Of a stretch of DNA of 64,000 bases, positions 3,574-63,650 are shown piece by piece. The DNA comes from an uncultured archaeon (GTDB taxonomy: Archaea > Aenigmatarchaeota > Aenigmatarchaeia > GW2011-AR5). Position numbers and translations under genes: made by a program. The notes under the pieces were generated by a model. It saw only the letters and a list, made by a program, of their open reading frames with translations, did not search any database and was not told where the DNA came from. The stretch is from NCBI GenBank assembly GCA_964373255.1, contig CAYJTG010000003.1:25759-89758 (forward strand). Direction: 5' to 3'. How positions within the stretch are numbered: position 1 is the stretch's first letter; each line of letters begins with the position of its first letter.

Positions 3574-5868
3574 TTGGTGTTTTTTATGCCCAACAATGAG
3601 AAAGAAGACGAAGCCATGCTGAAGGTCGGCGAATTGACAGAGCGTGGCGACTTCGGCCGTGGCATTGCTAGAATATCTGCAAAGGACATGAAAAAAATAG
3701 GCGTCAGCGAAGGCGATGTCATTGAGATGGAAGGCAAAAGAAAGACCGGTGCCATAGCTGTCCGTGCTTATCCTGTTGACGTTGGTCTCGATGTCGTGAG
3801 AATGGATGGACTTGCCAGAAGGAACTGTGGTGCAGGCATTGGTGAGATTGTTAAAATAAGAAAGTCCGATGTGAAGGAAGCAAAATCCGTGACTATTGCA
3901 CCGGCTCGCAAAGGCATAATAATTCACATGGGCGGAAACCTGCTGAAACAGAACCTTCTGATGAGACCACTAGCTACGGGCGACATCATAATTCCTAATC
4001 CTATTGTACAGGATCGGAGGTCACAGACAACACTATTTGAGCAGTTCTTTGGCGTCGATTTCGGCGATTTTCTATTTACACCATTCGGCGAAGAGAAGTT
4101 CGCTGTTGTGAGCACCGAGCCAAAAGGTATTGTGCGCGTGACAAGGTCGACAGACGTTGAGCTGCTGCCACAGGCTACAAGGCCCATGGAGGAAGAGAAG
4201 ATCCCCGAGGTCACATACGAAGATTTGGGCGGGCTGCACGAGGAGATAAAAAAGGTTCGCGAAATGATTGAGCTGCCGTTGAAGCACCCTGAGCTCTTTG
4301 AACGTCTTGGTATCGAGCCGCCTAGGGGTATTCTATTACACGGCCCGCCAGGAACCGGCAAGACACTTTTGGCAAAGGCTGTTGCAAATGAGAGCGGCGC
4401 GAAATTTTTTGTTATTAATGGTCCGGAGGTAATGTCAAAATTTTACGGCGAGTCGGAGGAAAATCTTCGTAAGATATTTGAGCAGGGTGAAAAAAATGCG
4501 CCGAGCATAATTTTTATCGATGAAATAGACTCCATCGCGCCTAAGCGCGAGGAAGTCAAGGGCGAGGTTGAGAAAAGAGTTGTTTCACAGCTGCTCACGC
4601 TTCTGGACGGATTGAAATCCCGTGGAAAAATAATTGTCATCGGCGCGACAAACATACCGAATTCGATCGACCCCGCACTAAGAAGGCCGGGACGATTTGA
4701 CCGTGAAATTGAATTAGGCGTGCCCAACAAGGACGGAAGAAAGGAGATTTTGCAGATCCACACAAGGGGCATGCCGCTCGCAAAGAACGTCGAGCTTGAT
4801 AAAATATCTGAAATAACTTATGGCTATGTTGGTGCAGACCTTGCGGCGTTGAGCAAGGAAGCTGCGATGCACGCCCTCAGGCGCGTATTGCCGGACGTAA
4901 GCGCCATAAAAGATGACAAACCAATACCCATAGACATACTAAAAAAGCTCATTGTAACAAAAGAGGATTTTGACCACGCACTAAAGATTGTTGAGCCTTC
5001 TGCGATGAGAGAAGTACTTATCGAGATACCCAACGTAAAGTGGGATGACATAGGCGGACTGGAAGACGTCAAGAAGCTGTTAAAAGAAACCATTGAGTGG
5101 CCGCTTAAATATCCTGATTCGTACGTAAGACTGGGTATAAAACCACCCGCGGGCGTACTTTTATACGGGCCTCCCGGAACTGGAAAGACACTCCTTGCAA
5201 AAGCCGTGGCTAATGAAAGCGGCGCCAACTTTATTTCTGTTAAAGGGCCTGAACTTTTGTCCATGTACGTAGGCGAGAGTGAAAAGCACGTTCGTGAGGT
5301 TTTCAGGCGTGCAAAGCAGGTTGCACCCTGCGTAATATTTCTTGACGAAGTTGATTCTCTTGTACCAAGAAGAGGTACGTCGAACGACAGCCATGTAACT
5401 GAACGTGTTGTTTCGCAGCTCTTGGCAGAGATGTCAGGACTGGAAGATTTGCACGGTGTTATAGTTATCGCTGCGACGAATCGGCCTGACATTATAGACC
5501 CTGCGCTTCTAAGACCAGGTCGGCTAGACAGGCAGATACTTGTCCATACCCCTGACGATGCTGCAAGGCTGGAAATATTCAGGGTGCACACAAAATCTAT
5601 GCCACTTGCTTCTGATGTAGATATAAACGACGTAACAAGCCAAACAAAGGGCTTTTCAGGCGCAGACATAGAAGCCGTATGTCGTGAGGCTGCGTTGTTT
5701 GCGATGAGAAAAAACATAAGCACAGAGCAGGTAACAAGAAAAGATTTCGAACAGGCGCTGAAAGAAGTGAAGCCGTCTCTTACCGAAGAGATGAACCAGT
5801 TCTACGAGAGCATACTGAAGAAGAAAAAATCGCGCGTCATCGAGGAAGAAGTAAACTACATGGGATAA
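3574..5868 (+). CDS. cdc48: AAA+ ATPase Cdc48 / VAT (VCP-like ATPase). N-domain followed by tandem D1 and D2 AAA modules.
   Basis: Two Walker A motifs (GPPGTGKT, twice). Walker B DEID and DEVD. Both SRH regions present. 764 aa. Start possibly at about 3586 (MPNNEK). Confidence 0.92.
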
Positions 5869-16146: not shown

Positions 16147-16974
16147 TTATATGGGTTTCCATTCTTTTATTGCCTTTTCATAGCCGTGCGGCGTGCCGAC
16201 GTCAAAAAGGAAGCCGTCATGAACAAATCCTGTAACACTTCCCTTGCTGCTCAGTATAGAAAACAGCTTGTCGGTCATGACCTTCCCGTTTGGCACGTAT
16301 CTTAGTGCTTCAGGCTCAAATATGTAGAAGCTCGCGTCTATTAGATTGGTAGGCGCGTTCAAAGGCTGGTCAATAAATTCTACCACCTGGTTGCCGTGCA
16401 TTCTCACAACACCGTATTCTGTAGGATCGTTCGAATTTGAAAGTAGGATGGTTGCAAGTGCGCCCTGTTTCCTGTGGAAATTAAATAGCTCTGGTATGTT
16501 AGGATTTATGAGCGTATCTACATTCAAGACCGCAAATGTGTCGTGTATTTTTCCCCTAAGAAGCCGCAGAGCCCCCATCTTGCCGAGAGGCTTTTGTTCT
16601 ACAATATAATCTATCTTAACGCCAAATTTGCTGCCATTACCAAAATGTTCAAATATCTTTTCGTGGTTCTCTCCTACAGTAAGAATGATATTTCTTATGT
16701 CAAATTCCTTTAACATGTTTATCTGGTGCTCCAGAACAGGGCGGCCTTTGATCGGTATAAGCGCCTTAGGTATCTCGTATGTTATTGGTCTCAGCATCGC
16801 ACCGTCGCCACCGGCCATTATTACAACTGTATTCAAGTCTGTTTTTGCAAGGCCTCTCATGATAAGTTGTTCAACCGCGTGTGACCTGTTTCTTACATCT
16901 TCATGGTCGATTGTCTTGTCCAGTTTCCTTAGTATGTCAGATTTTATTGTTATAGTAACGCGCTTAAGAGTCAT
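16147..16974 (-). CDS. Fusion protein: N-terminal ribbon-helix-helix (CopG/Arc-like) domain joined to a sugar-1-phosphate nucleotidyltransferase domain.
   Basis: The first ~45 aa 'KRVTITIKSDILRKLDKTI...RNRSHAVEQLIMRGL' fit a beta-alpha-alpha RHH. It is followed by the nucleotidyltransferase motif 'VVIMAGGDGAMLRPITYEIPKALIPIKGRPVLEHQI'. Confidence 0.65.
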   Translation of the reverse strand: MTLKRVTITIKSDILRKLDKTIDHEDVRNRSHAVEQLIMRGLAKTDLNTVVIMAGGDGAMLRPITYEIPKALIPIKGRPVLEHQINMLKEFDIRNIILTVGENHEKIFEHFGNGSKFGVKIDYIVEQKPLGKMGALRLLRGKIHDTFAVLNVDTLINPNIPELFNFHRKQGALATILLSNSNDPTEYGVVRMHGNQVVEFIDQPLNAPTNLIDASFYIFEPEALRYVPNGKVMTDKLFSILSSKGSVTGFVHDGFLFDVGTPHGYEKAIKEWKPI

Positions 16975-56199: not shown

Positions 56200-58929
56200 T
56201 TATTCAAGTACGACCTTCTTTCCCAATGAGCCGTGGAAGCTGATGAGGACCTCTCCGCCGCAGTCGCACAGGCCTCTTATAGGCGCGCGCCTGTAGCTAC
56301 GGTTGCACGATTTGCACACAAATTCGTCCCATCCGCCCAGTTCGCCGGCTGTATTTTCGTTCGTATCTTCGGTATGGTTGTATGCGATGTCGATGTCCTT
56401 TTTTGTGGTGCGCCTTTTTCCCAGCAGCAGGTCTCCTAAGCTTACCTGCCGTCCGTTTCCAAGCAGCTCTGACTTTTCGACGCCTACCGCAGAGAGAATT
56501 CTTTCTATCGGCGGAAACAGCTGGCTCTCGATATAGTAGTTCGAGTCGATTGGTATGTTGTGCTTCTCGGCGTACGCCGGGTCTTCTGCGCGCTTTGAAA
56601 GCATCAGGTTGCCCTTGATAATAACAAATCCTATCCGATCGCCGATCTTTGGCGCGTCGTATGGGTTTCTTGCCGCAAGCTTCCTTGCAAGCTCTATGTG
56701 CGGAAGAATGCCTTTGTAGCTGTCCAGCCCCTGTGTGATGCCCTTTATGATTGTCAGTTTTTCCATCGGTATCTCGTTCTTGCGCAGCTTGTTCAATATG
56801 CCCTTTATGTAATCTATTGCCTTCTGTACGTCCCCTTCCTTGAGTATTATGTTCAGCGTTGTCATCATCGTCTCGCTCACGAGGGCACACCAATCTCTTC
56901 GCACGGTCTCGATGCCGCGCATGTCTATCTCATCGGTCCACCCGTTATCTGTCTGTTCGAACTTCCAGCCGGCGTATCTCTTTTTTGACAGGATAAGAAA
57001 CGTCCTGTATATTTTCTCAAACTGCAGTTCCAGCTGGCCTGGCAGGTTTTCTGTGACGAATTCTGATATCTTTTTGCCAGTCTCTTTGGCCTCATCCAGA
57101 TTGGTCGTTTTTGTCTTGATGAACATGGAATCCGTGTCAGCGTACAGAACCTCAAGCCCAAATTCTTTTTCCACCAGATTTTTTGTCTTTTCCAGATTTT
57201 CGCGCCCGAAGGCTGTTATAGAGTTCGCAACGTCGATCATGTAAAGCCTTGCCCTCACGTATCCCGTATACCCGTAGAACGAGTTTGACATGTCCTTCAA
57301 TGCGAGCTGCTTGGCGTTGAGGATTCTTCTTTCTTCGCCGGTTTTTGTTTTCATGAGTCCTTTAATTTTGCTTCGCGTCTCGATAAGCCTTTCCAAAACA
57401 GAGGGAAATATTCCCTTGTATAAGTCTTGGTCCACGAAAAGTGTGCCGATCGGCGATTCGTGGTGCTTTAGATCTGCTGTCTCTGATGTAAGGACGCTGT
57501 CTGGCGAAATGTTGTACGTCCTCATGATGGAAGGGTAGAGGCTCTTGAAATCCAGGACTATGACGCACGTATCTGCGTGCAGGCCTTTATTTGGCTCCAG
57601 CACGGTGGCGCCCTTGAGCTCTTTTTCTTCTCGTTCTTTTGTGCGCCTGTAGAGCTCCTGCCTGGAGTGCGCCGATGACATGACAACATCCCTTTTCTTA
57701 AACTCGTGAAGAAGCATTGTCTCTATCCTTTTTGTCTGCCCACCGAAGGTATCCTGAAGAAGGACGCCTGATATCTTTGAAAGCTCAAAGAATTTGTTGA
57801 GCATTCCCTTTTCTATGAGCAGTTTCATCGACAGGTCCGCGTCCTTTCTCGAGTACTCAATGAATTTTACCATATTCTGCCTTGTGCTGTTCCAGAGCTC
57901 TGCCATCTCCGAGTACGCAACCCCGTGTTTTTCCTCGTCGAGGAGCTTCTTTGCTACTGTTCTTAGGTCGTAGCGGTGCAGCTTTACCCACGGGTCTCTT
58001 TTCAGTATCTGGTAGGGGTCAACAACAACGCGCCCGGCTACAATAAACTCCTGGGTTATGCCATAAGTTTTGGAAAATGCGTCCTTGTCACACCTTCCTA
58101 TTGACAAAGGCAGCTTGTTTTGCTTTAGCCTTTCGATTATGTAAGGCAGGTCAAATGAATTTATGTTGTAGCCTGTTATTATGTCGGGATCATAAGAATC
58201 GATAATGCACAGCAACTCTTCGAGCATCTCCTTTTCGTTTCTAAAGCCCCTTACGCCGTCGCCAAAAAATGGTTTCGCCACAAGAACTGTGGATTTTGAG
58301 CCCCTGAAGTCCGGCCTGAAAGAGAGCGATACCATAACGATTGGGTCGTGCCTCGCGTCAACGGGCTTTTTGTCGTCCGAAGGTATGCATTCAATATCAA
58401 GGGCCATATAGCTGAGTGGCGCGTTCTCCAGGCTCTCAACGGGGTTTATTTTGTCTGCCTTGTAAGCCGCGACCTTTGACCTCACTGTTTTTTGTTCGTG
58501 TGTGCCTTCGACCTCTACCCACTGCATGCCGTTAAGTCCGTGGTCTACCATGAACCTGTACTTGAACATGATATCCGCTTCGTACACGTCCTGTGCGATA
58601 CCTGTGGATATGAGCTTCTCCCTGACGTGCGGCACGTCCTGCGGGTTGAACAGCATGACCTTGAGCATCTTTGTTTTGCTCTTCTGATAGCCGAGCGGGA
58701 TGAATTTTTCTGTTGGCTCGATGTCTTTTATTTCTTTCATGCCCTCGACGGCCGTAATGGCTTTTCCTGCCGTCATTTTTTCGCTCAGCCTCATGTAGAA
58801 GTAGGGAGTTACCTTGTCGTAAAGTACACAGCACGGTGCCCCGTTTTCTGTGCGCCCAAATATTCTTATAATGGGCTTGTTAGTATTGACAAAATAGTCT
58901 ATGTCTAATATCTGCATTTTGAAAAGCAT
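56200..58929 (-). CDS. polB: Family-B DNA polymerase (PolB) with an intact 3'-5' exonuclease domain and a C-terminal Cys4 zinc-ribbon extension.
   Basis: Exo I 'LDIECIP', Exo II 'YNINSFDLPYI', Exo III 'YSRKDADL'. Pol motif A 'DFKSLYPSI', motif B 'KDMSNSFYGY', motif C 'YADTDS'. C-terminal 'CKSCNRSYRRAPIRGLCDCGG'. Start at the Met of MLFKMQILDIDY, preceded by a GGGGGT Shine-Dalgarno-like sequence. The ORF track extends 5' to 59037. Confidence 0.9.
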   Translation of the reverse strand: MLFKMQILDIDYFVNTNKPIIRIFGRTENGAPCCVLYDKVTPYFYMRLSEKMTAGKAITAVEGMKEIKDIEPTEKFIPLGYQKSKTKMLKVMLFNPQDVPHVREKLISTGIAQDVYEADIMFKYRFMVDHGLNGMQWVEVEGTHEQKTVRSKVAAYKADKINPVESLENAPLSYMALDIECIPSDDKKPVDARHDPIVMVSLSFRPDFRGSKSTVLVAKPFFGDGVRGFRNEKEMLEELLCIIDSYDPDIITGYNINSFDLPYIIERLKQNKLPLSIGRCDKDAFSKTYGITQEFIVAGRVVVDPYQILKRDPWVKLHRYDLRTVAKKLLDEEKHGVAYSEMAELWNSTRQNMVKFIEYSRKDADLSMKLLIEKGMLNKFFELSKISGVLLQDTFGGQTKRIETMLLHEFKKRDVVMSSAHSRQELYRRTKEREEKELKGATVLEPNKGLHADTCVIVLDFKSLYPSIMRTYNISPDSVLTSETADLKHHESPIGTLFVDQDLYKGIFPSVLERLIETRSKIKGLMKTKTGEERRILNAKQLALKDMSNSFYGYTGYVRARLYMIDVANSITAFGRENLEKTKNLVEKEFGLEVLYADTDSMFIKTKTTNLDEAKETGKKISEFVTENLPGQLELQFEKIYRTFLILSKKRYAGWKFEQTDNGWTDEIDMRGIETVRRDWCALVSETMMTTLNIILKEGDVQKAIDYIKGILNKLRKNEIPMEKLTIIKGITQGLDSYKGILPHIELARKLAARNPYDAPKIGDRIGFVIIKGNLMLSKRAEDPAYAEKHNIPIDSNYYIESQLFPPIERILSAVGVEKSELLGNGRQVSLGDLLLGKRRTTKKDIDIAYNHTEDTNENTAGELGGWDEFVCKSCNRSYRRAPIRGLCDCGGEVLISFHGSLGKKVVLE

Positions 58930-58981
58930 AATAATACCCCCGAATGAAACATTTCGTTTTATTTCATAATGTTCTTTACTA

Positions 58982-60115
58982 TTACTTTCCGAATATCTGG
59001 ACCTGCTTTGCATCCCTTGTTTCAAGGTCGATGACAACCGGCCGGAAGTCTGCGAGCATCGACCCTGATGTGGCTATTGTAACTGATTTGTAATTCGTGA
59101 CCTGTGACCCGCTGGCGTGGCCGAAGCACACGATGTCCGGGGTGTCTTCGAGCACAAAGTAATTTTCCTCTGATACCGCCTTTCCGTGGCCGAGGTAACG
59201 CTTTTTTAGCATGCTTAATTCAAATTCGTGTATGACGAGTATCTTTACCCCGTTTATCTCCAGAAACGCCGGATCGCTCAGTGATAATATTTTCCCCGTG
59301 CTGAACTGAACCGGCAGTCTTGGATAAGCGCCGCGTGTGTCCCGCTCGCCCGGGATAAATACAACCTCTTTTTCTCTGCAGTACCTGTCTACCATTCGTT
59401 CGAACGTGCCTATATCACCGACGTCGCCTGCCACAACAAGGTATTTTATATCTTCATTCTCAAACCATAAAAAGAATTTTTCTATTTCACCGATAGGCGC
59501 CTCATCGATCATCAGGTTAGAAACAAGGCACACTTTCCCCCAGCCGACAGTTGGCTGTCGCAGCGGTATGTCCGGCTGTATGACCTGCTTTCCGAACAGG
59601 ATGTTTTTTGATGAAATGGCCCTTATCGCAACGACGTCGTCTGTACCTATATCAGGCTTACCCTCAAAAATGATTGAGGCCGCCCCTGTGTTGTCTTCGA
59701 TATCGACGGTGGTCTTGTCGCCGTTGTCCCTTATGTCACGCACAATTCCTATAACGTAGGACTCATCGAGGTACGCGCCGACCTTGTTTATCGAGACGAA
59801 CGGTTTTCTTATTCTGCTTGTCAGTATTTCTCTGATTTTTTCGTACTTTGCCCTGTAAAAATTTGCAAAATCATCTGGTGTCAGCGTGGTTTTCGGCGCT
59901 GTCAGATTTTTGATTATTTTTATTTCGTCTTTTTTTGCTGCGCTTTCTCTGTGCGCAAAATCCGGCCTATCGAGTACGAGGTCTCCGCCAACCATGCCGC
60001 TGATTTGTTCGTCTGTTATCGTTGCTAACAAATCCGGTGTCAGAAGCTTGCCCTTGCTCAGCAGCTTTTTTACGATTTCCTCTTTCATGCTAAAGATACC
60101 GCCTTTATAGATCAA
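58982..60115 (-). CDS. DP1-like protein, homologous to the PolD small subunit / eukaryotic polymerase B-subunit. Its calcineurin-like phosphoesterase motifs look degenerate.
   Basis: 'FLWFENEDIKYLVVAGDVGDIG' matches the DP1 'YLxIAGDxVDG' block. The DxH position reads 'VSNLMID', the GNHD position reads 'IPGERD', and the GHxH position reads 'CFGHAS'. 377 aa. Confidence 0.55.
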   Translation of the reverse strand: MIYKGGIFSMKEEIVKKLLSKGKLLTPDLLATITDEQISGMVGGDLVLDRPDFAHRESAAKKDEIKIIKNLTAPKTTLTPDDFANFYRAKYEKIREILTSRIRKPFVSINKVGAYLDESYVIGIVRDIRDNGDKTTVDIEDNTGAASIIFEGKPDIGTDDVVAIRAISSKNILFGKQVIQPDIPLRQPTVGWGKVCLVSNLMIDEAPIGEIEKFFLWFENEDIKYLVVAGDVGDIGTFERMVDRYCREKEVVFIPGERDTRGAYPRLPVQFSTGKILSLSDPAFLEINGVKILVIHEFELSMLKKRYLGHGKAVSEENYFVLEDTPDIVCFGHASGSQVTNYKSVTIATSGSMLADFRPVVIDLETRDAKQVQIFGK

Positions 60116-60130
60116 AACGTCTCTTGATGA

Positions 60131-61390
60131 TTAGCTGAACTTGCCGTCAAGAAACTGCACTACCCTGTCAAAGGCACTTCCGGTAACCGATAAAACAATT
60201 TCCCTCGTTCTTCCATGACGACCGTTTGATACGACCTTCGTCGTTATTATGCTCAGCATGTCTAATTCGCCTATAAGATCGCTGACCCTGCGCTGTGTTA
60301 ACGGTTTCAGCCCGTTGCCATCACAGGTTGCCTTATACGCCTCGTATACGTCCCCTGTAAATATCCTTTTGTCGTTCCATCCTTTCTGGGTTTTCATTTT
60401 TTCTGTGACCTTGATGATTGCGTATAAAACTGCCTGAGAGTGTGTTGGCTGGGCTTTTATGCCTTCTGTTATGCGGTCCAGGTCCATTTTCTGCTCAGCC
60501 ATGTCAACGTGCTGCTCTTCAACGGCGCTGTGCCCCATTCGTTCGGCAACCTCGCCTGCCACGCGCAAGAGGTCTAGCGCCCTTCTTGCGTCACCGTGCT
60601 CCTGTGCAGCTATGGCAGCGCACTTGTTTATAACCGCCTCGTCAACAGCGCTTGGTATAAAGCCGTGTAACACCCTTTCTGTGAGTATGTCTTTAATCTG
60701 GGCTGCGTTGTACGGCCTGAACAAGATTTCTTCCTCAGACAGCGATGATCTGATGCGGAGGTCTAGGTTGTTCTGCAGTGAGAGGTCGTTGGTTATGCCG
60801 ACAACGGTTATGTAGCTGTTCTTGAGCTCGTGATTTATGCGTGTGAGGTTGTACAAAAACTCGTCCCCGATCTTCTTCACCAAGGTGTCGACCTCATCCA
60901 GAACAAGAATAATTGTGCTATTCATACGTTCAACCCTGTCAAAAAATTTTCTGTAAAGCACGTTTGTCGGCAGGCCTGTATCAGGGACGTGTTCACCAAG
61001 CTCTTTCAGCAGCTGTGCGACAAGCCTGTATTCTGTGTCTGCCACCTTCTTCATCTTACAGTTTATGTAGACAACGCGGAGCTTTGGGCTGTTTGCCATA
61101 GAAATGAGCTGGCTTGCGACAAATTTCATGGTTATTGTCTTTCCGGTACCGCACGTGCCGTAAATAAATATGTTGTTTGGCCGGTAGCCCTTCAGCACCG
61201 GCGCGAGGACCGAGCTTATCTGTCCTATTTCGTTGTCACGGTGTGTGATCTTCTCAGGAATAAACAGCGATGTCAAATAGTTCTTGTCCCTAAAGATGTT
61301 GCCCTTATGTATGTATTGAGAAAATATGTTGCTACTAATGCTTGTCTTTTGGACCAGTCTTGACACTACCAACACCCCACCAGAAATCAT
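60131..61390 (-). CDS. orc1: Orc1/Cdc6 replication initiator, an AAA+ ATPase with a C-terminal winged helix.
   Basis: Walker A 'GTCGTGKT', Walker B 'ILVLDEVD', sensor motifs. 419 aa. Confidence 0.9.
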   Translation of the reverse strand: MISGGVLVVSRLVQKTSISSNIFSQYIHKGNIFRDKNYLTSLFIPEKITHRDNEIGQISSVLAPVLKGYRPNNIFIYGTCGTGKTITMKFVASQLISMANSPKLRVVYINCKMKKVADTEYRLVAQLLKELGEHVPDTGLPTNVLYRKFFDRVERMNSTIILVLDEVDTLVKKIGDEFLYNLTRINHELKNSYITVVGITNDLSLQNNLDLRIRSSLSEEEILFRPYNAAQIKDILTERVLHGFIPSAVDEAVINKCAAIAAQEHGDARRALDLLRVAGEVAERMGHSAVEEQHVDMAEQKMDLDRITEGIKAQPTHSQAVLYAIIKVTEKMKTQKGWNDKRIFTGDVYEAYKATCDGNGLKPLTQRRVSDLIGELDMLSIITTKVVSNGRHGRTREIVLSVTGSAFDRVVQFLDGKFS

Positions 61391-61800
61391 TACATTATGA
61401 CAACCACGCCAAACAGTAATGATTCAACCACAATATAAGTAAAAACAACCCAAAGTAATTACACCATTATTTCTCTTGGAGGATATATAAACATATCTCT
61501 ACTGGAAATCAACGTTACTGAAAATATAGTTTCAAAACAAGACAGCTCCCCTATATTTCTTGTGGAACTTTTAAACAAACAATTACATAAATAACACTGT
61601 TATAAGAAAGAAAGGGTACGTTTTGTGTTTCTTTTCTTCAAAACTTGTTCTCACCACTAGTCGTTCATTAGAAATAATGGGGTCTGCTATACAGAAATGC
61701 GTATAAATTGCGTGATACCGTACTAATTCCCGATAAAACCAATAATAATCCAACAACACAATAACAGACCAAACCAATTTGTTCTTGCTTATTCCACAAT
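61391..61800. promoter_or_regulatory. Candidate replication origin (oriC): an AT-rich intergenic region next to orc1 carrying ORB-like TCTnnTGGA repeats.
   Basis: Direct repeats TCTCTTGGAGG (~61472), TCTACTGGAAA (~61498) and TCTTGTGGAAC (~61558). An inverted copy ATTCCACAAT (~61791) lies across an AT-rich stretch (61570-61790). The arrangement sits directly upstream of orc1. Confidence 0.4.
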
Positions 61801-62202
61801 TTCGAACTTGAAACCATAGTTGATTACCCCAGCGGCCCCGTCTTCGTATAACTTCCTGAAGACCATCCTTACAGGCTTTCCAATAACTATATTTTTATGA
61901 TCACCCACAATATGGCTGCTTACAACAGGCCCCTCGTCCAGTTGCACAAGGGCCATGGCATACGGGACATGTTTTTCAAAGCCCTCTGGCGCAGTATGGA
62001 TGACTGTGTAGGATAAAATCTTACCGCTGCCAGAAAACTGAAACTTCTCAATTTCCTCATGGCCGCAGCCCATGCAAACCGACCTTGGCGGAAAATGCGT
62101 CTGGTTGCACGATTTGCACCGTGTGCCTACCAATGCATATCTATGCTTCGCCAGTCTCCACGACATTGCAACAGATCCACTGTGTGACATGATTATCAAC
62201 AA
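61789..62202 (-). CDS. DUF35 Zn-ribbon / OB-fold protein, the scaffold partner of archaeal thiolase and HMG-CoA synthase.
   Basis: 'CKSCNQTHFPPRSVCMGCG' rubredoxin-like ribbon followed by an OB-fold region. 137 aa. Confidence 0.8.
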   Translation of the reverse strand: MLIIMSHSGSVAMSWRLAKHRYALVGTRCKSCNQTHFPPRSVCMGCGHEEIEKFQFSGSGKILSYTVIHTAPEGFEKHVPYAMALVQLDEGPVVSSHIVGDHKNIVIGKPVRMVFRKLYEDGAAGVINYGFKFEIVE

Positions 62203-62477
62203 AACTTTGGAGAACGCCCAGCATAGATTTCCGTTTCATTTATCGGGTACATTAAAAGGTTTTTTCTAATATTAGGATTTTTGCTAGGCACACACGCATA
62301 AATTACACCTTCTACAAATTTGTGGTAAAAATAGCGTATTTTTGAGGTATGTCCGCCCCACTTTACAGTTACAATACTATCAGACTCTAAGTGCCTACCA
62401 TTACTATCTGGCGAACCCCAATGTCCAAAGGGTGGCCATCCATTAAATCTGTATTTCCATGTATAATTACCAATCAT
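62196..62477 (-). CDS. Hypothetical Trp-rich small protein, 93 aa, lying between the thiolase and DUF35 genes.
   Basis: The ORF fills the whole gap. It has no recognised motifs. Coding status is uncertain. Confidence 0.25.
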   Translation of the reverse strand: MIGNYTWKYRFNGWPPFGHWGSPDSNGRHLESDSIVTVKWGGHTSKIRYFYHKFVEGVIYACVPSKNPNIRKNLLMYPINETEIYAGRSPKFC

Positions 62478-62480
62478 ATC

Positions 62481-63650
62481 CTACACCTTCCTCGGTTCCT
62501 TTCCGAAAATATTTACTACAGCCGTCGCGCCAGAGCCGCCAATGTTCAGGTTCAGCCCGATTTCTGCCCCATTGATTGGGTTGAAGCACTCGCCACGCAG
62601 CAACTTTGCTATTTCAACGACCTGCCTGACGCCTGTTGCGCCGACAGGATGCCCGCAGACCTTCAGGCCACCGCACGTATTTGTTGGAATATCACCATTA
62701 ATATCTATAGCACCATTTTCAACAAACCTGCCACCTTTACCCTTTTCGACAAAGCCCAAGTCTTCCATCGCGATTATTTCATTTATGGTAAAGCAGTCGT
62801 GAACCTCTGTTGCGTCGATCTTGTTGTGATCAAAATTAGCCATTTCAAACGCCTGCTTTGCGGCAGCTTTTGTCGCCAGCAGTTCTGTGTAAGACTTCCT
62901 GTCATGCAGCGCAATAGAATCGCTGCCCTGGCCAGTACCAAGAACATAAATCGGCTGAACATCCAAATTCTTCGCTACATTTTCACTTGTAAGCACAACA
63001 GCAGCTGCGCCGTCCGTTATAGGCGAACAATCATACAACCTTAACGGATCAGCAATCATCATTGACGTAAGCGCGTCCTCAAGCGTAATAGCCATCTGGA
63101 ACTGTGCAAGCTTGTTTTTCAGCCCGTTTCTGTGGTTTGTCACGGCTACAGATGCAAGCTGTTCAGATGTTGTGCCGAACTCGTGCATATGCCTTCTTGC
63201 CATCAGTGCATACAGTCCGGCAAACGTTAATCCAATCGCTGCCTCCCATTCCTGGTCGCCTGCAGCTGCAAGCGTTGTTAATGCCCCAGATCCATGTACG
63301 TCAGTCATCTTCTCGACGCCGACAACAAGCGCAGCGTCTATATGACCAGAAGCAACAGCAAAATAAGCGTCACGAAACGCCACCGAGCCAGAAGCGCAGG
63401 CAGCCTCACAGCGCGTTGCAGGAATGTTACCAAGGCCGAGATTATCAGCAATAAGCGCGCCAAGATGTTCCTGGCCGACAAACCGGCCGGCTGACATGTT
63501 GCCGACGTACAGGCTCTGTATTTTTCCTTTTTCAATTTTCGCATCCCTTATCGCGCCAAGCCCTGCTTCTACGCCCAAATCACGCAGCGATTTATCCCAC
63601 AGCTCGCCGAATTTAGTCTGGCTTGCGCCGACAACAGCAACGTTTCTCAT
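62481..63650 (-). CDS. Archaeal-type thiolase (acetyl-CoA C-acetyltransferase).
   Basis: 'VAVVGASQTKFG'. Active-site Cys in 'CEAACASGSVA'. C-terminal 'NTCGGLKVCGHPVGATG'. Confidence 0.85.
   Translation of the reverse strand: MRNVAVVGASQTKFGELWDKSLRDLGVEAGLGAIRDAKIEKGKIQSLYVGNMSAGRFVGQEHLGALIADNLGLGNIPATRCEAACASGSVAFRDAYFAVASGHIDAALVVGVEKMTDVHGSGALTTLAAAGDQEWEAAIGLTFAGLYALMARRHMHEFGTTSEQLASVAVTNHRNGLKNKLAQFQMAITLEDALTSMMIADPLRLYDCSPITDGAAAVVLTSENVAKNLDVQPIYVLGTGQGSDSIALHDRKSYTELLATKAAAKQAFEMANFDHNKIDATEVHDCFTINEIIAMEDLGFVEKGKGGRFVENGAIDINGDIPTNTCGGLKVCGHPVGATGVRQVVEIAKLLRGECFNPINGAEIGLNLNIGGSGATAVVNIFGKEPRKV

Follow-up and report, generated by a model that had tools for sequence, protein, structure and literature searches.

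A probable ORB-type replication origin upstream of orc1 in Aenigmarchaeota, with a conserved central palindrome

INTRODUCTION

Two described archaeal origins come closest to the locus reported here. In Pyrococcus, the origin (oriC) lies upstream of cdc6-dp1, and the TTCC and GAA elements needed for Cdc6 binding are invariant in its origin recognition boxes (ORBs) and mini-ORBs (PMC1904270). In Sulfolobus oriC1, the inverted boxes ORB2 and ORB3 take one Orc1-1 each, with a defined polarity, and stand around an AT-rich duplex-unwinding element (DUE) that receives the MCM helicase (PMC12141716). Midway between the two lies ucm, an 11-bp motif essential for origin firing, whose mutation abolishes the activity of the origin and leaves Orc1 levels as they were. 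Its binding protein, UBP, makes contact with the N-terminal tier of MCM, has more than 300 sites in the genome and, according to the authors, is restricted to Sulfolobales and Desulfurococcales (PMC12141716). Whether other archaeal lineages possess analogous origin factors is a question posed by the same authors (Dhanaraju et al. 2025, PMC12141716). Here we analyse a 64-kb stretch of DNA (hereafter the window) from an uncultivated member of the Aenigmarchaeota (DPANN), in which the non-coding region upstream of the initiator gene orc1/cdc6 carries four ORBs and, between two of them, a perfect palindrome (PAL). We consider it likely that this region is the Orc1-bound, ORB-type chromosomal origin of the genome.

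DPANN archaea have tiny genomes and are mostly uncultivated, and the replisome of Aenigmarchaeota is unusual, a PolB of group B6 and an inactive DP1 taking the place of PolD. An ORB-type origin beside orc1 is what specialists would expect; the lineage and the conserved central palindrome are the new part. Our search of the literature on DPANN and Aenigmarchaeota origins and ORBs found no description of such an origin or of the palindrome, which does not prove that none exists.

RESULTS

Four ORBs lie in the gap upstream of orc1

The initiator gene of the window is a bona fide orc1/cdc6: its product scores 404 bits with NCBIfam TIGR02928, for a cutoff of 181, and is 60–71% identical to proteins labelled Candidatus Aenigmarchaeota. 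A non-coding gap of 398 bp separates it from the next gene upstream. The GC content of this gap is 32.4%; the gene blocks on either side have 47.6% each and the window as a whole 40%. A preliminary description of this DNA had singled out the AT-rich non-coding region upstream of orc1 as a candidate oriC with ORB-like repeats, and on both points our analysis agrees with it.

The repeats were noticed through a 9-mer, TCTNNTGGA, which occurs exactly at 61472, 61498 and 61558 on the same strand. Three copies within 95 bp correspond to a Poisson P of ~2e-8, for a motif defined after seeing the data. Over the window the 9-mer is only mildly in excess (13 copies for 7.1 expected; 6 of 100 shuffles reach 13). 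A fourth nearby copy, at 61345, is inside the orc1 coding sequence; no hit of at least 7 bits with the matrix described below falls on it, and it is not an ORB. The 9-mer is, in our reading, the dyad core of an ORB of about 24 nt, with the clade consensus TTCCAnAnGAAATnAAGG(G/T)nT. Its likeness to Orc1-binding mini-ORBs, also put forward in the preliminary description, is borne out by the copies themselves, which carry the TTCC...GAA core needed by Pyrococcus Cdc6 (PMC1904270).

Relatives were collected as 80 orc1 loci from one-genome-per-species contigs, 41 of them DPANN (Aenigmarchaeota, Nanohaloarchaeota and a few labelled otherwise) and 39 euryarchaeal. In the DPANN relatives, a loose core pattern matches almost solely 50–400 bp upstream of orc1. 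From this we built an ORB matrix of 28 nt, refined on relatives only (consensus nnnTTCCAnAnGAAATnAAGGTnT) and then scanned across the window. Read on the orc1 strand, an ORB (for example GTTCCACAAGAAATATAGGGGAGC) consists of a TTCCA..GAAA dyad core followed by a G-string. Beyond the seed pattern, the informative positions are T4, before TTCCA, and the G-string at positions 20–24 (GG.GT, 4–5 nt past GAAA). The G-string also emerged, as GGGGT(G), from an unbiased search for 7-mers enriched in the 400 bp that precede orc1 in the 41 DPANN loci.

Matrix hits of at least 16 bits number five in the 64 kb, against 0.17 expected from 200 dinucleotide-preserving shuffles, and four of the five fall within 230 bp. 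The same 200 shuffles never gave more than two hits of at least 14 bits within 300 bp; four are observed. The features of the region are as follows.

60131..61390, minus strand: orc1/cdc6 initiator gene, 419 aa (Pfam Cdc6_C, 1e-25; Cdc6_lid, 7e-24; AAA)
61391..61788: non-coding gap between orc1 and the DUF35 gene, 398 bp, 32.4% GC
61457..61484, minus strand: ORB-A, nearest orc1, ATCCTCCAAGAGAAATAATGGTGTAATT, 22.1 bits, holding the 9-mer copy at 61472; conserved block in an alignment of seven loci
61483..61491, minus strand: TATA-like box between ORB-A and ORB-B, TTTATATAT on the orc1 strand; TATA.A columns invariant in seven loci
61494..61521, plus strand: ORB-B, TATCTCTACTGGAAATCAACGTTACTGA, 17.8 bits (less than 5 bits on the minus strand), holding the copy at 61498
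61543..61570, minus strand: ORB-C, AAGTTCCACAAGAAATATAGGGGAGCTG, 24.3 bits, the top score of the 64-kb window, holding the copy at 61558
61571..61659: AT-rich spacer between ORB-C and ORB-D, 89 bp, 28.1% GC (15% GC in 61571-61590)
61591..61603: PAL, ATAACAcTGTTAT, 13 bp, perfect 6-N-6 palindrome inside the ORB-C/ORB-D spacer
61595..61622, plus strand: weak ORB-like half site, TGTTATAAGAAAGAAAGGGTACG, 13.6 bits, with the right half of the palindrome in place of TTCCA
61660..61687, plus strand: ORB-D, distal inverted ORB, GTCGTTCATTAGAAATAATGGGGTCTGC, 16.4 bits

The fifth strong hit is far from this cluster.

16455..16482, minus strand: isolated ORB-like site, AATTTCCACAGGAAACAGGGCGCACTTG, 19.4 bits, inside a nucleotidyltransferase gene (16147-16974)

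No partner sites accompany it; it is probably a solitary or chance occurrence, comparable to the mini-ORBs scattered in Pyrococcus.

Arrangement of the ORBs around the spacer and the TATA box

The four ORBs lie 67–297 bp upstream of the orc1 start codon. ORB-C(-) and ORB-D(+) form an inverted pair in which the TTCCA end of ORB-C and the core of ORB-D are both turned toward the spacer, the G-strings of both boxes pointing outward; in the inverted-repeat search, ORB-D pairs with ORB-A as well as with ORB-C (I2, I11). The spacer is the most AT-rich part of the gap, the GC minimum being at 61560–61640, and a GC content of 28% or lower is found in just 7% of 89-bp windows across the 64 kb. By analogy with Sulfolobus oriC1, the spacer is a candidate duplex-unwinding and MCM-loading zone. 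On the orc1 side, ORB-A and ORB-B have opposite orientations with the TATA-like box between them, which is the probable orc1 promoter.

This geometry departs in part from the preliminary description, where the three 9-mer copies were direct repeats and an inverted copy at about 61791 lay across a 220-bp AT-rich stretch. The three positions are exact. The ORBs at 61472 and 61558, however, read on the minus strand (22.1 and 24.3 bits) and the one at 61498 on the plus strand, which rules out a set of three direct repeats; the G-string of ORB-B (AAGGTTT) is likewise kept on the plus strand in relatives, opposite to ORB-A and ORB-C. No ORB was found at the proposed inverted copy: no score within 61770–61842 exceeds -1 bit, and the 3' end of the neighbouring gene runs into the site. 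ORB-D is the true inverted partner, and the ORB-bracketed stretch is therefore 89 bp long and not 220 bp.

Across the seven closest loci, conservation is restricted to the ORB, palindrome and TATA blocks, among them GTTCCAnnGGAAATGAnGGGGTGT at ORB-C and AGACnCCTTnGTTTCTTATGGAA at the distal ORB-D, and the sequence between the blocks diverges. The distal 100 bp of the gap (61688–61788) have no conserved feature.

A palindrome is conserved between inverted ORBs

The 7-mer enrichment had a second, unexpected product, the palindrome family TAACA(C/G)TGTTA to which PAL belongs. It is a perfect palindrome, ATAACAnTGTTAT, often lengthened to TATAACAnTGTTATA. The window holds a single copy, with no other site in 64 kb even at one mismatch. 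In the DPANN relatives, the upstream zones (500 bp from each of the 41, 19.4 kb together) contain 23 perfect and 11 one-mismatch copies, and the remaining 313 kb contain 4 and 5, respectively. Copies with at most one mismatch are present in 30 of the 41 loci, and the palindrome is absent from the 39 euryarchaeal orc1 loci (320 kb).

PAL is almost always flanked by an ORB(-) and an ORB(+), both with the core turned toward it. Its position is fixed with respect to these ORBs; with respect to the start of orc1 it ranges from -100 to -345 across loci. The complete order, ORB(-), PAL, ORB(+) and then the proximal ORBs upstream of orc1, is found in about 30 of the 41 DPANN loci, in Aenigmarchaeota as well as Nanohaloarchaeota. 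In the closest clade, the window included, the distal half of PAL runs directly into an ORB-like tail (TGTTATAAGAAAgaAAGGGT, 13.6 bits), and this hybrid, ACCCTTaTTTCTTATAACA, is conserved in loci L002-L006, L018, L020 and L027.

A few perfect copies occur away from orc1. One, at L041:2193-2205, is 65 bp upstream of an HTH_3 gene, divergent from hjc; another is intergenic (L042:911-923), and a third is inside a TctA transporter gene (L026:6761-6773). The genes beside stray copies (Maf, PAP2, TctA, hjc) were considered for a common theme and show none.

The ORB-PAL-ORB module leads back to orc1

The module stays with orc1 whatever gene sits further upstream. In two complete relatives it lies near 690 kb (CP066684.1) and near 124 kb (CP012986.1). 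The link was also tested from the opposite side, by a reverse search of metagenome contigs with the DNA pattern only, TTTCNNNTGGA-N(25-55)-ATAACANTGTTAT-N(18-48)-TCCANNNGAAA. It returned 95 stretches from 80 loci. An Orc1 homologue is encoded in 68 of the 80 loci, and in all of these (68/68) the 5' end of its gene is at most 300 bp from the module. In 11 of the 12 loci without orc1, the stretch breaks off within 300 bp of the module. The module is linked to orc1 exclusively. In the metagenome loci the median gaps on the two sides of PAL are 38 and 37 bp, and PAL therefore lies midway between the ORBs in the DPANN set.

Viral contigs were screened with the half pattern, PAL-N(18-48)-TCCANNNGAAA. 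None of the 14 matches has a full ORB, orc1 or a helix-turn-helix (HTH) gene, and they are therefore chance matches that serve as a negative control.

The locus with the highest local Orc1 identity (L013, 69% over the best aligned segment) was rejected as unusable. It is a scaffold of a UBA metagenome-assembled genome (MAG) with NN joins at 3893-3894 and at three other positions, one of the joins being 107 bp upstream of orc1, and with PolB on the opposite strand; it is probably chimeric and unfit for synteny.

In several relatives, strong ORBs (up to 32 bits) cluster a second time, 3-5 kb downstream of where orc1 starts. Relative to the start of the orc1 match, these are at +2952 to +3022 in L014, +3483 and +3561 in L015, +3357 to +3474 in L035, +3854 and +3952 in L026 (with a palindrome at +3794), +5075 and +5133 in L030, and +5059 and +5107 in L032. 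In L015 and L035 the cluster is just upstream of a reversed PolB gene. These clusters recall the second ORB cluster in dp1 of Thermococcales and could be a second origin or sites of Orc1-dependent regulation.

Candidate proteins for the palindrome

The perfect 6-N-6 symmetry of PAL points to a protein that acts as a dimer. An XRE-type HTH_3 protein is encoded no more than a few kb away from the origin in about 45% of related loci (19 of 41 from genomes, 35 of 80 from metagenomes). It has about 241 aa, the motif SDYESGRRKSPGI and an uncharacterised C-terminal domain. Its gene often flanks the origin directly and divergently from orc1 (examples are L011:3005-3712, L031:3028-3708, L041:2264-2989 and L042:2863-3552), and none is found near orc1 in the 39 euryarchaeal loci. 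The protein may be an origin-associated factor and is a candidate for the accessory protein discussed below. As the palindrome binder it is a weak lead: the window encodes no HTH_3 homologue in its 64 kb, adjacency of the gene is not correlated with presence of PAL (15 of 19 loci with the gene and 15 of 22 without it have PAL), PAL is upstream of the gene in L041 only, and the family is large and without specific annotation. It is also possible that Orc1 itself recognises PAL as a variant dyad, as the hybrid PAL/ORB site hints.

Neighbouring genes

All genes around the gap are on the minus strand. The identical sequence occurs in a 123-kb NCBI contig and in an 11-kb Logan contig (L001), from which the DP1-like gene call was taken; the identical contig is also carried by run ERR4904392.

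56200..58929, minus strand: family B DNA polymerase (PolB), Pfam DNA_pol_B 2e-110
58982..60088/60115, minus strand: divergent DP1-like (B-subunit-like) gene directly downstream of orc1, 368-377 aa
61789..62202, minus strand: DUF35/ChsH2-type OB-fold gene, upstream of the gap
62481..63650, minus strand: thiolase gene

The order orc1, DP1-like gene, PolB is kept together in most Aenigmarchaeota loci, and only the closest clade has thiolase and DUF35 genes upstream of orc1. The parallel with the oriC-cdc6-dp1 order of Pyrococcus, drawn in the preliminary description, holds for oriC, cdc6 and the presence of a DP1-family gene. It is only partial, because the DP1-like gene is divergent and is followed by PolB and not by DP2 as in the oriC-cdc6-dp1-dp2 cluster of Thermococcales. 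The DP1-like protein scores 111 bits with the NCBIfam PolD small-subunit model, far under the equivalog cutoff of 445 that marks a genuine PolD; it matches DP1 chains of the PDB at E ~1e-6, and Pfam Metallophos_2 at a borderline 27.5 bits. No ORB hit of at least 7 bits falls in this gene (58982–60115).

The last ~35 residues of PolB (905–938), a Cys-rich tail, match the C-termini of PolD large-subunit models (E 5e-4), and by sequence the tail resembles the C-terminal zinc module of DP2. For group B6 of the Aenigmarchaeota PolBs, a DP2-like C-terminal domain and an inactivated DP1 have been described, with a proposed replacement of PolD (Kazlauskas et al. 2020, PMC7544198). The DP1-like gene and PolB of the window fit this published pairing and are to that extent not new: B6 shares with them the single C-terminal Cys motif resembling DP2 and the position of PolB after a highly divergent DP1 homologue. 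The published pairing concerns the neighbouring genes and not the origin, and the passages of PMC7544198 that we read mention neither an origin nor a linkage to orc1. The pairing of PolB with a B-subunit at 56200–60115 is eukaryote-like.

Upstream of the origin, genes for HMG-CoA synthase, the DUF35/ChsH2 OB-fold protein and thiolase are grouped (61789–63650 and beyond; L001:2317-5646), which we take to be the usual archaeal trio for entry into the mevalonate pathway. All three are found only in the nearest relatives' clade. Elsewhere in the window, a low-GC island at ~21000–44000 (30–38% GC, against 40–48% in the rest) is densely filled with genes for GT1/GT4 glycosyltransferases and PMT-family mannosyltransferases, along with a UDP-glucose dehydrogenase and a flippase for polysaccharides. 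The island is a gene cluster of the ordinary kind for cell-surface glycans and may have been gained by horizontal transfer. No tRNAs were found in the window, and a scan for bacterial-type promoters and terminators was set aside as uninformative for an archaeon.

DISCUSSION

The region upstream of the Aenigmarchaeota orc1 shows sequence features by which ORB-type origins are recognised: adjacency to orc1, several TTCC...GAA ORBs with a G-rich tail, inverted ORBs around an AT-rich segment, and an arrangement conserved among relatives. With the oriC of Pyrococcus and other Thermococcales it shares the order of oriC, cdc6 and a DP1-family gene, the TTCC/GAA cores, and inverted long ORBs with G-rich tails. 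It differs in having four full ORBs, whereas Pyrococcus has many 13-bp mini-ORBs, and in the lack of an ORB cluster within the DP1-like gene. With oriC1 of Sulfolobus/Saccharolobus (ORB3-DUE-ORB2 by orc1-1) it has in common adjacency to the initiator gene, inverted ORBs of defined polarity around an AT-rich DUE, here a candidate one, and a short conserved motif at the centre. Only the position of this motif is shared: ucm (ATTATACAAA..) is not palindromic, whereas the DPANN element is a perfect palindrome, and UBP binds hundreds of sites over the genome, whereas PAL is almost confined to origins. PAL is for these reasons a positional analogue and not a member of the ucm/UBP system.

We propose that oriC is here merged with the orc1 promoter. 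Orc1 monomers would occupy the four ORBs. In the inverted distal pair, ORB-C(-)/ORB-D(+), the TTCCA cores point inward and bracket the 89-bp spacer of 28% GC; the two Orc1 molecules bound there would recruit the MCM helicase onto the spacer, where the first unwinding might take place, as in Sulfolobus oriC1. PAL, located between the two presumed MCM loading positions like the crenarchaeal ucm/UBP, would most likely be recognised by an accessory protein that is dimeric and sequence-specific. ORB-A and ORB-B, the proximal pair, stand on either side of the orc1 TATA box, so occupancy by Orc1 would feed back on transcription of its own gene.

Several points weigh against reading the region as oriC. 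What is proposed for Orc1 binding, MCM loading, unwinding, autoregulation and a palindrome-binding protein is drawn from sequence. The seed pattern of the matrix came from the window's own motif, which brings some circularity into the core positions. ORB-D has TTCAT in place of TTCCA and reaches only 16.4 bits. In the window PAL lies off-centre, nearer to ORB-C (24 bp) than to ORB-D (about 60 bp), and the ORB-like half site overlaps it, blurring the exact loading geometry. The cumulative GC skew has no turning point at 61.4–61.8 kb; skew within the window is uninformative here because the site is only 2.2 kb from the window end, inside a block of genes all on one strand that covers 56–64 kb, up to the window end, and ~1 kb more on the identical L001. 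Finally, an ORB-bearing origin can be dispensable, as reported for Thermococcus kodakarensis (PMC5663688).

The last point also nourishes an alternative in which the ORB cluster is only an operator for control by Orc1 of its own promoter, and perhaps of its neighbours, replication starting elsewhere or being independent of origins, a mode known in Thermococcus (PMC5663688). ORB-A and ORB-B do flank a conserved TATA box, and in relatives lone or clustered ORBs occur upstream of other genes, such as the reversed PolB of L015 and L035. An operator would not, however, account for the distal inverted pair, the AT-rich spacer and PAL, which are 150–300 bp upstream of the promoter in the geometry of a mapped origin, nor for the conserved spacing around PAL, and we regard it as unlikely. 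Still less credit can be given to a small RNA or small protein encoded in the gap with the repeats incidental to it. The sole open reading frame (ORF) of the gap (61583–61777, 64 aa) does run across the spacer, and a 27-nt imperfect inverted repeat is present (61535–61561 / 61604–61630). No Rfam match was obtained, either in the whole window at the gathering threshold or in 61250–61950 at E<=1; tblastn with the ORF gave nothing below E=0.7 in the 80 related loci, and the gap is conserved in ORB, palindrome and TATA blocks and not as a reading frame, all of which makes this reading very improbable. That the region is just an ordinary AT-rich intergenic sequence in which a short degenerate motif recurs has in its favour the mild over-representation of TCTNNTGGA alone; clustering, the scores of the extended motif, conservation across genomes and the reverse search exclude it for practical purposes.

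For PAL itself the choice is more delicate. It may be the DPANN counterpart of ucm, a site where a lineage-specific accessory protein would act between the MCM loading positions and be needed for activation; this rests on the analogy with Sulfolobus, and we hold it only tentatively. Alternatively, and in our eyes with similarly modest chances, PAL may be an operator for a dimeric transcription factor of orc1, or of the divergent HTH gene of the relatives, and take no direct part in the loading or activation of the helicase. A perfect 6-N-6 palindrome is a typical form of operator for dimeric HTH proteins, the XRE-type gene is beside the origin in many loci and often divergent from orc1, and L041 has its second perfect copy upstream of that gene. 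On the other hand, that copy is the only one of its kind, the genes flanking the gap in the window are co-directional and the HTH gene is missing from the 64 kb, a full ORB separates PAL from the orc1 TATA box, and the position of PAL is tied to the ORBs and not to the start of orc1.

If the region is oriC, as we think probable, the logic of ORBs and Orc1 extends to the Aenigmarchaeota lineage, and the site provides a precise anchor for the start point of MAGs, for skew analysis and for estimates of growth rate from read coverage. The palindrome, highly conserved and nearly confined to origins, stands where Sulfolobus has the essential ucm/UBP, and a sequence-specific third component at the centre of MCM loading may thus recur in archaeal origins. 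A defined DNA bait (TATAACAGTGTTATA) is now at hand for finding the component that binds it. Were PAL indeed a counterpart of ucm, it would answer the question raised by Dhanaraju et al. (2025) and provide a second, independently evolved example of such an origin factor.

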